The notes below the pieces were generated by a model. The model ran no database searches, had not been told where the DNA came from, and saw nothing but the letters and a program-made list of their open reading frames with translations. A DNA stretch of 64,000 nucleotides from Antedon mediterranea. Taxonomy: Eukaryota > Animalia > Echinodermata. Position numbers and translations under genes: made by a program. Of the stretch, positions 41,201 through 61,355 are shown one piece after another. Each line of letters opens with the position of its first letter. Within the stretch, counting starts at the first letter, position 1. Location: positions 23,856,795 through 23,920,794 of the forward strand of contig NC_092670.1 of assembly GCF_964355755.1 (NCBI RefSeq). The letters run 5' to 3'.

Positions 41201-44200
41201 TGTGGAATCTTTTTTTTAACGCATAATGAGCTAGCCTTTCCAGTCGCCGTCTATTATGTACAATCAAATTTATTATTGCAGCTAAACCACCACCAACACC
41301 ACCACCCTCCCCTCACTGGCATGAGTAGCGTTGTAAAGCCAGTAGAGGGCAGGCCTACAGTACGAATGATCAGTACATGCCCTAAACGCAGAACAACTTT
41401 TCAATACAAGTTGGGTAGTGGGTAGCATAATTGGCTCTATGAAACAATTAACCATTAGGCCTACTAATTAAGTTGAGTTAGATAATTATTTATTGACGAT
41501 TAAAGCGAATTTACGATTTGCCCCGAATAGAGGTGTTTAATATATTACTGACAGTTCCTTCTGAACGTTTGTAATCATGTAACTTCAAAAAAATATAAAC
41601 GTCGTATTAGTGATGTATCGTTACATGTACTGTACTATTTCAATCGACTATGACGGTGACAGTTTCAACAAAGTATTAAATCGCAATTTTTTACTGTGTT
41701 TACTGGTATATTATTTGTAAAACATGAAAACAATTCATATTTCGTTACTAAATCGATAAAGAATATATTTAAAAATTGTTCGTCTTTGCATCCATCCTCT
41801 TCCCCATCCCTCAACCCAAATGTTACATACAAAACACAAATTCAGTTTGTTTCTTATTTTGTGACAAGTTTCTTTTTCGGAAGTAATTCCCGGGGTGCTA
41901 ATTTTAGTTGAGTACATAAATCACTGTGTCTATTTATTCGTTCCTGTAAACAACATGTATTATTGTCCTGCATGTGCATTTGAAGTCGCCAGTTTTTTAA
42001 ACGCTGAAATTAGTATGTATTCGAGAACCATCTGTGGGCACGACCTAGATGGTACGCGAGCGAAGCGAGCGTACCATCTAGTAATTTACAATTTACAATC
42101 ACATTTTACCAGGACCATTAATATTGCACTATACACTGTCTTTTATATTTTTATAGAATGTGAATGATAGACCGAGGATAGACGCTCCACCAGTGGACCC
42201 TGCACCAAGGGTACGGTATCTGATGCATCTTTTCAGTTTACATTTAGAATCATGTACACAATTCCACTCACTTATCTTGTACAGTGCTTGCTGTACATAC
42301 ATAGAATATAACATTGAAGCATGTTGAACATGGATTACAAATTAAAAAAAACTAGATGGTACGCTCGCTTCGCTCGCGTACCATCTAGGTCGTGCCCACA
42401 GATGGTTCTCGAATACATACTAATTTCAGCGTTTAAAAAACTGGCGACTTCAAATGCACATGCAGGACAATAATACATGTTGTTTACAGGAACGAATAAA
42501 TAGACACAGTGATTTATGTACTCAACTAAAATTAGCACCCCGGGAATTACTTCCGAAAAAGAAACTTGTCACAAAATAAGAAACAAACTGAATTTGTGTT
42601 TTGTATGTAACATTTGGGTTGAGGGATGGGGAAGAGGATGGATGCAAAGACGAACAATTTTTAAATATATTCTTTATCGATTTAGTAACGAAATATGAAT
42701 TGTTTTCATGTTTTACAAATAATATACCAGTAAACACAGTAAAAAATTGCGATTTAATACTTTGTTGAAACTGTCACCGTCATAGTCGATTGAAATAGTA
42801 CAGTACATGTAACGATACATCACTAATACGACGTTTATATTTTTTTGAAGTTACATGATTACAAACGTTCAGAAGGAACTGTCAGTAATATATTAAACAC
42901 CTCTATTCGGGGCAAATCGTAAATTCGCTTTAATCGTCAATAAATAATTATCTAACTCAACTTAATTAGTAGGCCTAATGGTTAATTGTTTCATAGAGCC
43001 AATTATGCTACCCACTACCCAACTTGTATTGAAAAGTTGTTCTGCGTTTAGGGCATGTACTGATCATTCGTACTGTAGGCCTGCCCTCTACTGGCTTTAC
43101 AACGCTACTCATGCCAGTGAGGGGAGGGTGGTGGTGTTGGTGGTGGTTTAGCTGCAATAATAAATTTGATTGTACATAATAGACGGCGACTGGAAAGGCT
43201 AGCTCATTATGCGTTAAAAAAAAGATTCCACAGATTGGAAAAAAGTGTATCGAATTTCTGTTATGGCTGTACAGTACTTGTCTTTACGACGCCTGAGGGA
43301 ATAGACACTTGTGGAACAGAGATTGGAATGTTCCATTTATCGCAGATCAAAAAATTTGTATAAACGTATATTAAATCTATAAAAATAGTATTTTTTAAAG
43401 AAAATCGGCCTGTCTTCAACATTATGATGCTGTACTCGAGCTGTTCAACCGGTTTTCAGCTATTAAAAACAATTATCGTAGGAGGAGATAGGAAAATGCG
43501 AAGCATCCTCGCATTATCTAACTCAATTTAATTAGTAAACATGGTTACATCAAATGGTTAAAATCAGTACCGAAAGTACGAACCAACTTTATATACCATC
43601 GAGTAAAAATTCTAGAAATAAACTGCGATTTACCGAATTTTGCCCTTACGTAAATTTATATATAGATAACACTAATGATTTAAGGTTTACGGTACTTCAT
43701 GTGCTTCCGACAAAGAACAGCCTCAACGGTTGAAAACATATACACTTCCATCTACATTTCATTTCCTTTTGGACAAAATATCGCAAACATTAAGTTACTG
43801 GTGGTAGTGTAAACTTACTTATTGTACTTTATGACTTATATCATCAGGTGATAGATGACGTTGAGTTTCCCTATTCGTCTCCAAATATAGTGTTGCAAAA
43901 CACTAATGTCACCTTTATTGATCCAGTTGAGGACGTTGCCAACACTTACACGGTTACAATAGCTCATGAAGGAAGTCGTCGACAAACAGTCATTGCTCAT
44001 GTTATACATGGTATGTAAAGCTCTGTCACTATCAAACGAGTTTGAAAAAAAAGTGTGATCATGGGCAGATCACATAAAGTTTGATAGTGTAGACAGAGCT
44101 ACAATTAATTGTAATTATAATATGCGTTGATGATACCAAACAAAAACCACAATCATAAATATTTGTATCACCATCTTCATCATGGCATAGTTTCTAGTTT

Positions 44201-59200: not shown

Positions 59201-61355
59201 TCAAACTACCAGTTCACTACGGTGTTATTCGACCAATTGCTCAGATTAAGGACGCAGGTACTTTTATTTATTTCACCTCCATGTTTAATATAACTACAAA
59301 TGAGTAAAGATAATTAAAATACAGCATTTGGAAAAGCTACTTCTACTTGTAAGCTGTTGAAAAAAAGCACAACGGTACCGAGTAAAGAAAGTAGATTTTA
59401 TGAAACAAATATTACAATATATAAAGCTATTGCAATAAGTGTTAATATAACTTTAAATTGTTTTTTTTTTATATAATTACATTATACCTGTGTAAATGCT
59501 TATACAGATATGATCGGTATCTGCACTGAAAAGTCACCGAAGGGGACTTTAAGGAGCTACTTACATTCATTTAGAGATGCACGTAATTCTGTTAAACCAA
59601 AAGCAAGGGAGTTGATCAACTATGCTATACAGATAGCCGAGGCAATGCAGTTTCTACACGAAGAAGAGGTAATAATAATAATAATCATAGTTAGTAATAA
59701 ACATAGGTTATAGATTATAATACATTGTATCGTGTAGGCCTATTCTGCTGTTTGAATACAACATCGTCATCAATGGTGCAAATATTATACTTATTCTATT
59801 TTCTTTGCCGGTGTCTAAATGTCACAGAAAGAGAATAAGCATTGTATTCTATCTTGTATCATACCATTAATATTCATCCATTTTATTACAGAGAGTCTGT
59901 CCAATGCTCCGTTGTCAGTTGGTTATGCTATTTCGTGACAATGTCGTTAAAATTCCAGTTCTTGGTTTGAAACATATTAGTGATAACACCGATCTCTATC
60001 GATTTGTAAGTTGGTTTATTTACAAAAATACATCTTACAGCATAACTTGTTTCTAAATCTATTAAAGGAAGTAGAACATATTACACTTGTTCTTAATTAT
60101 AATAGGGAGGAGAGACGAGACTTCCATTAAGATGGATGTCACCGGAAGCAATTGCCTACCACATTACAACAAAGAAATGTGACGTGTGGACTTTTGGAAT
60201 CGTCCTCTATGAAATTGTAACTTTAGGTAAGAAAACTATTCTTAATAAATTTTAAAACATATTTCTATTCTATCGTTATTCAAAGAATAACCAGTGTGTG
60301 CAGTGTGTTATCGAGTACTTGTTTTTGTTTGTTTCAATATCGTAAGTTGATTATTTCCAGGTTGTGGGCGGATACCTTTATGATTATACTTTTCTTAATG
60401 CGAATATATTTTTTTTTCAGGTGATATTCCGTATGATGGCATAGACGAGAAAAATCTGCCTGGATTGCTATCCAATGGCCACCGTCTTGCAAAACCACAA
60501 TGTTGTTCCAATGCACTGTAAGCGTTGTTAAGTTTAATTCATCCTTCCCTTTGGTAAAAGAGGTATTGGTACAATATGTCTTAGTACAAGGCATCTTTGT
60601 AAAAGGTATCTATGTAAAAGGCATCTTCCATGGCACAGTATGTCTAGAACAGTTAACTTTTAAGTTAACTTTTATCATTCAAGTTCAACCAAGCAGCTGT
60701 GGATGCAAGTTACATTGTCATTTTAAGTTTGTCAAAAAATGTTTTTATGTTATTTTTAAAAATAGATTTTCTCTTATGGAAAGTTGTTGGCAGACTGATC
60801 CAAAAGATCGACCATCTTTTGGTGACCTTGTTTCATATTTGAGAGTTCTAAAAGACGATAACAACGTACGTAATGAGTTTATTACTAACTAACCTATAAT
60901 ATTAAGATAGATTTTTGTGATGGCGCTAGTTACTCTTCGTTATGCGTGAATGATTTATAGAATGACGAATGAATGAATGATACCAAATCCAATGTTCAAT
61001 GCCGTTTCATGACTAGCAATGAGTAAAGTAATGATTGACACGTATTATACAAGTTTAAGATACATACTCCTCTGGCTAGTTAATATAATATTTTAATTAC
61101 TATAATTAACTATTCAAATTGTTTAGTTTGCTTTTTCTTTTATAGGCTATATGTTTTGGACCAGATTACATTGAACATCCATCATCAGGAAATCCATTTT
61201 TGTAGTTCGGTGTAAATTGATGCGGAATGTAATAATATATAAAGGAATGTAAAAACGATAATCATGAACGGCGAACGTCCAAGTAATAATGATTTACTAT
61301 ATATACTCAGAATGTATCAGTTGTTATTTGTAGAAGACAAGCAACGATTTATCAT
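53269..61355 (+). repeat. Segmental tandem duplicate of 34636-52655 (B unit minus its TE insertions)
   Basis: Colinear intergenic, promoter, intron and exon similarity from 53269~34636 (atgttt.ttcttctagg) to 61355~52655 (ttgtagaagacaag..aacgattt). Confidence 0.92.
56021..61205 (+). CDS. Receptor paralogue C: signal peptide - 2 Sushi/CCP - TM - tyrosine pseudokinase (~554 aa)
   Basis: Exons 56021-56087, 56474-56701, 57190-57384, 57923-58056, 58141-58200, 58295-58348, 58678-58840, 59147-59257, 59508-59668, 59892-60005, 60106-60226, 60421-60517, 60766-60865, 61146-61205; open frame. Lacks the stalk mini-exon. Confidence 0.92.

Follow-up and report, generated by a model that had tools for sequence, protein, structure and literature searches.

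The Antedon mediterranea DNA analysed here (64,000 nt; the window) carries three related blocks in tandem on the + strand, found by self-comparison and called A, B and C. Genes B and C are predicted to encode single-pass receptors with two Sushi domains in the ectodomain and a tyrosine-kinase-family domain inside the cell. In both, the glycine-rich (Gly) loop, the β3 lysine, the catalytic aspartate and asparagine and the aspartate of DFG are all gone, while the C-lobe motifs are retained. Lacking the VAIK Lys, the HRD Asp and the DFG Asp, B and C are pseudokinases as that class is defined by sequence. They belong to a group of crinoid domains whose pattern of conservation points to retention for a new job and not to decay.

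Gene models and domain plan

Exon models built from splice sites are open in both genes, with every intron GT-AG, and their products are letter-for-letter identical to the A. mediterranea RefSeq proteins P0004 (B) and P0002 (C); as the RefSeq proteins are themselves predictions, this is agreement and not proof. A query with one kinase exon gave three proteins from 14 candidates. Pfam finds two Sushi domains and a PK_Tyr_Ser-Thr domain in B and C, with PF00084 above cut-off in all four of their Sushi exons. Signal peptide and single transmembrane segment were judged by the hydrophobicity of the sequence, without a predictor. The full receptor plan (putative signal peptide, ectodomain, one transmembrane helix, intracellular tyrosine-kinase-family domain) is thus found in one predicted spliced product. 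The features of the cluster are as follows.

56021..61205, +: gene C, 14 coding exons, 554 aa, with signal peptide, two Sushi domains, transmembrane segment, juxtamembrane region, pseudokinase and tail (exon model; P0002, XP_071965949.1; Pfam)
38278..52055, +: gene B, 15 coding exons, 565 aa, plan as gene C (splice-site exon model; P0004, XP_071965946.1)
56474-56701, 57190-57384, +: Sushi exons of C (Pfam PF00084)
38741-38968, 39320-39514, +: Sushi exons of B (Pfam PF00084)
57923..58056 in C and 40352-40485 in B, +: stalk and transmembrane exon (hydrophobic run; helix 180-200 in the structure model)
58678-58840, 59147-59257, 59508-59668, 59892-60005, 60106-60226, 60421-60517, 60766-60865 (span 58678..60865), +: pseudokinase exons K1-K7 of C (exon model; spliced joints in run X1)
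43848-44010, 44616-44726, 44964-45124, 47132-47245, 47346-47466, 47662-47758, 48022-48121 (span 43848..48121), +: pseudokinase exons K1-K7 of B (exon model; contigs; tblastn)
61146..61205 in C, counterpart 51990-52055 in B, +: tail exon with Tyr543 and a terminal NPF, 15/20 identical to Anneissia
31654..34330 (end approximate), +: copy A, with signal peptide, two Sushi domains, transmembrane segment and a very short tail (RefSeq, 218 aa)

Copy A is without kinase exons: tblastn with four active kinases against the window gave no kinase match near it. Its ectodomain and transmembrane segment are intact, and it is a candidate decoy or the leftover of a partial duplication. As the search covered part of the genome, the size of the family in Antedon is a lower bound.

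Loss of the catalytic motifs

Alignment to FGFR3 confirmed in both copies the motif changes listed in a first-pass annotation of this DNA: no GxGxxG, VAVK turned to VIAH, HRDLAARN lost, DFG turned to VLG and the C-lobe motifs kept. In C they lie at the following positions.

58819..58830, +: β3 motif VIAH, for VAVK (Lys to His, adenine-capping Ala to Ile; HMMER alignment to FGFR3)
59898..59921, +: catalytic loop CPMLRCQL, for HRDLAARN (HRD Asp to Met, Asn to Leu)
59958..59966, +: VLG, for DFG (alignment to FGFR3)

The Pfam alignment that the annotation had proposed as a check gives a PF07714 kinase match for C (E=2e-50, profile 23-258) with the catalytic residues missing. The seven kinase exons of each copy have GT-AG introns throughout, no stops and no frameshifts. 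Neither the Lys, the HRD Asp nor the DFG Asp is present in B, in C, in an ortholog from the crinoid Anneissia japonica or in either kinase domain of P0036, a further Antedon protein.

The pseudokinase reading also withstands the objection that transcripts might use other exons restoring HRD and DFG. Reading the window in all six frames gave no HRDL, HRD..RN, KxxDFG or DFG[LM] pattern, and the tblastn search with four active kinases found known exons only. Spliced contigs of run X1 skip the K1-K2, K2-K3, K3-K4, K4-K5 and K5-K6 introns (five of the six between kinase exons) and both flanking introns; skipping of the K6-K7 intron has no example among the run X1 matches listed. Since these contigs skip the predicted introns, the dead kinase exons are those spliced into the product, and alternative exons within the window are ruled out. 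Contigs specific to the Sushi exons of B and of C are each present in run X1, which comes from another study.

Conservation among crinoids

XP_033103710.1 of A. japonica, a member of the Comatulidae where Antedon belongs to the Antedonidae, is a colinear ortholog whose dead motifs are the same. Antedon and Anneissia share 175/287 residues (61%) in the kinase and 78/137 (57%) in the Sushi pair, and the best-conserved part of the kinase is helices D-E, with 32/39 identical. The label 'FGFR3-like' of this protein appears to be a misnomer, given its lack of Ig domains and its dead kinase. P0036 (XP_071964453.1), on another contig of Antedon, has WSC and Sushi domains, a transmembrane helix and two tandem dead kinase domains, with no active kinase domain anywhere in the chain. 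B, C, the Anneissia ortholog and P0036 domains 1 and 2 (the five crinoid domains) are 46-98% identical in pairs; those of Anneissia and P0036, at 46-62%, have open frames and the same motifs.

We compared these five within a set of 279 kinase domains (what remained of 292 near-full domains once near-duplicates of two matches and isoform P0001 had been removed). Cys-Pro at the His-Arg positions occurs in 5/279 domains, all of them crinoid, and the catalytic-loop sequence C-P-x-L-x-C is invariant across the five. Conservation in at least 90% of the 100 canonical active domains singles out 43 positions; the five crinoid domains all retain 26 of these and all lack the usual residue at 11. The kept positions are structural (folding core, αF Asp, activation-loop Tyr); the lost ones include the Lys, H-R-D, the Asn and D-F, and one of them, V284, is a register artefact of the P0036 domain 2 profile alignment. 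Altogether 94/299 positions are invariant in the five domains, 23 of which carry residues rare in active kinases, and an invariant Lys-Pro surface motif on helices D-E is absent from the active kinases compared. The Lys position itself varies among His, Arg and Tyr.

A profile search of 1.84 billion representatives gave 61,066 matches, the best 150 of which were listed. No non-crinoid member was found among the top matches listed in the sequence and profile searches, and absence elsewhere is not proven. A second Anneissia protein, P0122 (XP_033107830.1; like the two accessions above, an automatic annotation), is a two-Sushi receptor pseudokinase that keeps the β3 Lys and has four YxxP motifs. 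It shares the two-Sushi plan of B and C end to end at 26% identity, and it is not one of the 12 domains that score highest on the 23 clade-specific residues. The case for its kinship with the dead clade is weak (99/94, flagged as a long-branch join); it may represent an earlier stage of the same lineage.

Divergence between B and C

Over the 289 codons of the kinase, B and C show five amino-acid differences (six nonsynonymous bases) and nine silent changes, exactly as counted by hand in the first-pass annotation, which also reported no stops or frameshifts. Nonsynonymous divergence (dN) is 0.009 and silent divergence (dS) 0.049, giving a dN/dS of 0.18 (bootstrap 0.04-0.55; Fisher p=0.0015), or 0.22 (p=0.004) with transition weighting. 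Purifying selection on the kinase, as the annotation had claimed, is supported by these values, and conservation across species is stronger evidence for it than B versus C.

In the Sushi exons 36/139 residues differ between B and C, with dS 0.33, dN/dS 0.52 (0.30-0.92) and no stops. By domain, dN/dS is 1.30 (0.56-3.87) for Sushi-1 and 0.24 for Sushi-2, and positive selection on the Sushi domains is not significant in the B-C comparison. The Sushi exons of A and B give 0.41, and a patchy A/B/C mosaic of the ectodomain has p=0.026. Silent divergence between B and C is 7-fold higher in Sushi than in kinase exons (0.33 vs 0.05, p=4e-7), and intron divergence is 81/694 aligned bases (11.7%) near the ectodomain vs 74/1340 (5.5%) near the kinase (p=1.5e-6). 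B-C divergence is ~9% upstream and over the ectodomain, falls to 1.5-5% at the juxtamembrane exons, stays there over most of the kinase and reaches 15% at the tail, which delimits one further feature.

58100..60480 (edges approximate; no strand): tract of low B-C divergence, ~1.5-5% with introns included, between flanks of 9-15% (B-C alignment)

The likely cause of this tract is that the intracellular half recently underwent gene conversion or unequal crossover. Because that half was recently homogenised, the contrast between kinase and ectodomain is confounded. The first-pass annotation had called the kinase the opposite of the ectodomain, and the Sushi exons do differ more; however, their dN/dS is also below 1, they have no stops, and part of the contrast is due to homogenisation. 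Nor does the ectodomain appear to be simply a fast-evolving opposite, because against Anneissia the Sushi pair is nearly as conserved as the kinase.

Predicted fold and nucleotide pocket

A structure prediction, also proposed by the annotation, returned a complete two-lobed kinase fold for the kinase region on a 53-row alignment (predicted local distance difference test score, pLDDT, 88.5; predicted template modelling score, pTM, 0.88). Its fold matches are FGFR3, FGFR2, RET and TIE2, with template modelling scores of 0.77-0.81 (0.79 for FGFR3), and we conclude that B and C are predicted to retain the kinase fold.

The nucleotide pocket was assessed for occlusion from sequence only. The Gly loop survives as a vestige in P0036 and is otherwise lost. 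The β3 Ala, present in 72/74 active domains, is Ile, Val or Leu in 5/5 crinoid domains, and the β7 Leu, present in 73/74, is Met in them. The regulatory spine is altered (His to Cys, Phe to Leu or Ile, Leu to Pro), while the Glu residues of αC and the hinge persist, as does a small Thr gatekeeper, and the hinge has no bulky Tyr. In PTK7 and RYK the pocket is filled by a bulky β3 residue. The possibility that the invariant β2 residue Tyr280 fills the adenine pocket here was rejected, as P0036 domain 2 has Thr and not Tyr at the capping Val. So was an atypical active kinase of the WNK type, with a compensating β2 Lys and both Asp kept (PMC13519141): B, C and Anneissia have no Lys in β1 to β3, and both Asp are lost.

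Phosphotransfer and Mg binding by the B and C domain would accordingly be very surprising. With the adenine-capping Ala replaced by Ile, Val or Leu and the Gly loop gone, the domain probably does not bind ATP either. The first-pass annotation had spoken of a likely nucleotide-free pseudokinase. Pseudokinase stands; nucleotide-free does not follow from losing the Lys and both Asp, because EphB6 and EphA10, which have lost these residues too, still bind ATP at ~95 uM (PMC8454701).

Ancestry

The annotation had suggested a phylogeny to find the active receptor ancestor. In each of three trees, built from 124, 46 and 37 of the 279 domains, the crinoid domains form a firm clade (99; 100/99; 100/100, respectively). 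A very long stem attaches it within a FGFR/RET/TIE-like group, outside the FGFR and RET clades, but the ancestor was not found: none of the three trees has a stable active sister. Depending on the tree, the crinoid clade joined other long branches or P0135 (91/87). The FGFR clade is itself firm (100/99), with the crinoid domains outside it in both careful trees, and forcing the two together is not rejected (p-AU 0.159). Membership of the FGFR family by ectodomain was rejected, Pfam finding Sushi domains only and no Ig domains. The intron phases of the B and C kinase may resemble the PDGFR/VEGFR/FGFR pattern.

Active Sushi or WSC-Sushi receptor kinases exist in Patiria (XP_038065016.1, XP_038056137.1) and Strongylocentrotus (XP_030830350.1), and sponge sequences make up most of one Atlas cluster of Sushi kinases, so the Sushi-kinase architecture is not new. 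What is particular to the crinoids appears to be the dead version and not the Sushi-transmembrane-kinase plan.

Possible function

With modest confidence, we favour the view that B and C are intact single-pass Sushi receptors whose dead domain is a docking scaffold phosphorylated by another kinase. The Sushi pair would bind a ligand or cell-surface partner and bring the receptor into clusters with an active tyrosine kinase, which would phosphorylate tyrosines in the juxtamembrane YxxP, the activation loop and the tail; the phosphotyrosines would then recruit SH2 adaptors. NPF is a ligand of EH domains, and the terminal NPF would link the receptor to endocytic proteins that carry them. Besides the tail exon given above, two sites are involved.

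58702..58713 in C, +: juxtamembrane YxxP (Tyr255), kept in B, C and the Anneissia ortholog
59997..59999 in C, +: activation-loop Tyr427, kept in the five crinoid domains

Tyr255 with its YxxP, Tyr427, Tyr543 and the NPF are common to Anneissia, while the remaining juxtamembrane region is only 11/33 identical, and the three tyrosines lie in exposed places outside the folding core. YxxP is a listed preference of the Crk and Vav SH2 domains, and EphB4 phosphorylates EphB6 in trans, after which EphB6 binds SH2 proteins (PMC8454701).

Several points weigh against this scaffold role. P0036 keeps the dead-kinase signature without YxxP and without NPF; those motifs are therefore not what the domain itself is selected for. 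B and C contain no ITAM and no free ITIM, the ITIM-like matches lying inside the kinase fold. Arg stands at the Lys position in the Anneissia ortholog and in one P0036 domain. In the structure prediction, 50 of the 53 alignment rows are other kinases, mostly active, which pulls the model toward the canonical fold; a first model on nine rows was poor (pLDDT 53), and its fold search was not relied on. Run X1 was taken as RNA by guess, although its intron-skipping joints support the guess. The scaffold role is itself inferred, and its partner kinase, ligand and phosphorylation are postulated.

The strongest competitor, though we consider it unlikely, is that the dead domain is an allosteric partner, either a HER3-like activator or a JAK-JH2-like brake, of an active receptor kinase or of another copy of itself, with docking secondary. 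It would account well for helices D-E being the most conserved part (32/39) with their invariant Lys-Pro surface motif, and for P0036, where two tandem dead domains without YxxP or NPF look as if the domain acts in pairs; receptor kinases of the WSC/Sushi kind that are active do occur in a sea star and a sea urchin, and the mode has been described (PMC13519141). However, no crinoid active Sushi receptor kinase occurs among the best 150 representatives or the named matches, and with the regulatory spine rebuilt an active-like activator surface is not evident.

Somewhat less plausible again are ligand-scavenging or adhesion/decoy receptors in which folding, trafficking and endocytosis, and not signalling, would be what the NPF tail and the dead domain are for. 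The conserved tail with its terminal NPF (15/20) and the kinase-less copy A, with the same ectodomain and a Sushi dN/dS of 0.41 against B, would suit such receptors, but a 290-residue domain with 94/299 positions invariant in five copies is under more constraint than a trafficking tag should be, and P0036 has no NPF.

We doubt even more that the domain still binds ATP as an EphB6-like switch, or has cryptic activity through substitute residues. The Eph precedent, the retained αC Glu, hinge Glu and Thr gatekeeper over a hinge free of bulky Tyr, and the Arg of Anneissia at the Lys position, which resembles KSR2 (PMC13519141), speak for it. Against it stand the lost Gly loop, the β3 Ala replacement in 5/5, a Lys position that varies freely, the lack of any Lys in β1 to β3 (B, C, Anneissia) and the lack of an acid at either Asp position.

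A decaying relic or mis-spliced model, with the B-C similarity coming from recent conversion or assembly duplication, is very improbable and already largely refuted: the homogenised intracellular half, three Helitron-like insertions in B introns and the roughly half depth of C-specific relative to A contigs in run X3 (depth being a poor measure of copy number) fit it, but dN/dS stays below 1 inside the homogenised tract, Anneissia and P0036 keep open frames and these motifs at 46-62% identity, run X1 contains Sushi exon contigs specific to B and others specific to C, and ~9% divergence separates B from C over kilobases of intron and upstream sequence.

Other features of the window

40646-42082 (+) and 42352-43667 (-) (span 40646..43667): Helitron-like inverted pair flanking the 54-nt B juxtamembrane exon 42157-42210 (self-comparison)
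45141-46900: third Helitron-like copy, in a B intron (self-comparison)
48471-51787: repeat block of 340-base period with an inverted part, in the last intron of B
52702-53269: long CAA/CAG-type repeat between B and C
16537-16695, +: neighbouring weak SNARE exon
24130-24300, -: neighbouring C1-domain exon resembling protein kinase C
25077-26725, -: neighbouring broken non-LTR (long terminal repeat) reverse transcriptase
63841-63999, +: neighbouring flavin oxidoreductase exon

The inverted Helitron-like elements are 99.4-100% identical, with 5' TC and a 3' hairpin followed by CTAG, and are inserted between A and T. RefSeq isoform X2 (P0001) skips exactly the 54-nt B exon between them, and the pair could promote this skipping. 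B-type contigs of runs X3-X5 appear to cross the 42352-43667 and 45141-46900 sites without the element, which suggests that the insertions are polymorphic; the alternative is collapse of the contigs with C.

In run X3 the C-specific contigs (56138-57882) have a depth of 147-154 vs 293-295 for copy A; depth is no copy number, and this hints only weakly at C being confined to one haplotype. Of the spliced contigs in run X1, the deepest (57980-58310) has transmembrane and juxtamembrane letters unlike those of B and C and is either another allele or a further copy. Among the changes listed for its kinase that occur in neither B nor C, three are silent and one is not.

Comparison with known systems

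Receptor tyrosine pseudokinases are known mostly from a few human proteins, and B and C represent an independent, old crinoid lineage. In a full-text search we found no literature on this crinoid family or on any Sushi receptor pseudokinase, supplementary kinome tables and most subscription journals lying outside that search. The Eph pseudokinases EphB6 and EphA10 resemble B and C in being single-pass receptors with the Lys, HRD Asp and DFG Asp replaced, and in having a conserved juxtamembrane Tyr open to phosphorylation in trans. They have an ephrin-binding ectodomain, a SAM domain, active paralogs and ATP binding of their own, whereas B and C have two Sushi domains, no Gly loop and Ala replaced by Ile in the adenine pocket. 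PTK7, RYK, ROR1/2, HER3 and STYK1 likewise place a dead tyrosine-kinase fold behind a transmembrane helix, and an Atlas feature search ranked Cad96Ca and STYK1 clusters first. All are listed as receptor pseudokinases in PMC13519141 save Cad96Ca, and ROR1/2 are ATP-occluded. B and C differ from them in the ectodomain and in a far more complete erosion of the motifs.

By sequence and fold the best matches of B and C are FGFR, RET and TIE2, of the FGFR/RET/TIE-like receptors. The echinoderm Sushi and WSC-Sushi receptor kinases have the same Sushi-transmembrane-kinase plan, but they are active, with HRDLAARN and DFG intact, and make no stable join with B and C in the trees. The exact dead signature is shared with Anneissia XP_033103710.1, whose 'FGFR3-like' annotation is corrected here, and with Antedon XP_071964453.1, in a 100/99 clade; Anneissia XP_033107830.1 differs in its β3 Lys and joins by a long branch. 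The combination of a Sushi ectodomain with unusually complete motif loss, in which a new invariant sequence has replaced the dead catalytic loop, makes these receptors a natural case in which to ask why a kinase fold is retained after the loss of ATP chemistry.

A broader and rather improbable reading would make the cluster a crinoid-specific, copy-variable system of immune or self-recognition, with Sushi domains diversifying by duplication and shuffling, a gene-converted nucleotide-free pseudokinase module with the new Cys-Pro-x-Leu-x-Cys loop, copy A as decoy and a double-pseudokinase paralog. The homogenisation contrast, copy A, contig depth and allele differences are weak hints in this direction, and a variable recognition system in crinoids would, if true, be of greater significance. 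A comparable case is fester / FcoR of Botryllus, also an invertebrate deuterostome: like the crinoid genes, these type I receptors are duplicated and clustered, carry a Sushi domain and diverge in their ectodomains (PMC12582321). Unlike the crinoid cluster, they have Ig domains and, in the part of that description available, no kinase domain; the crinoid cluster, for its part, comprises three copies without an ITAM, and positive selection in it is not significant.

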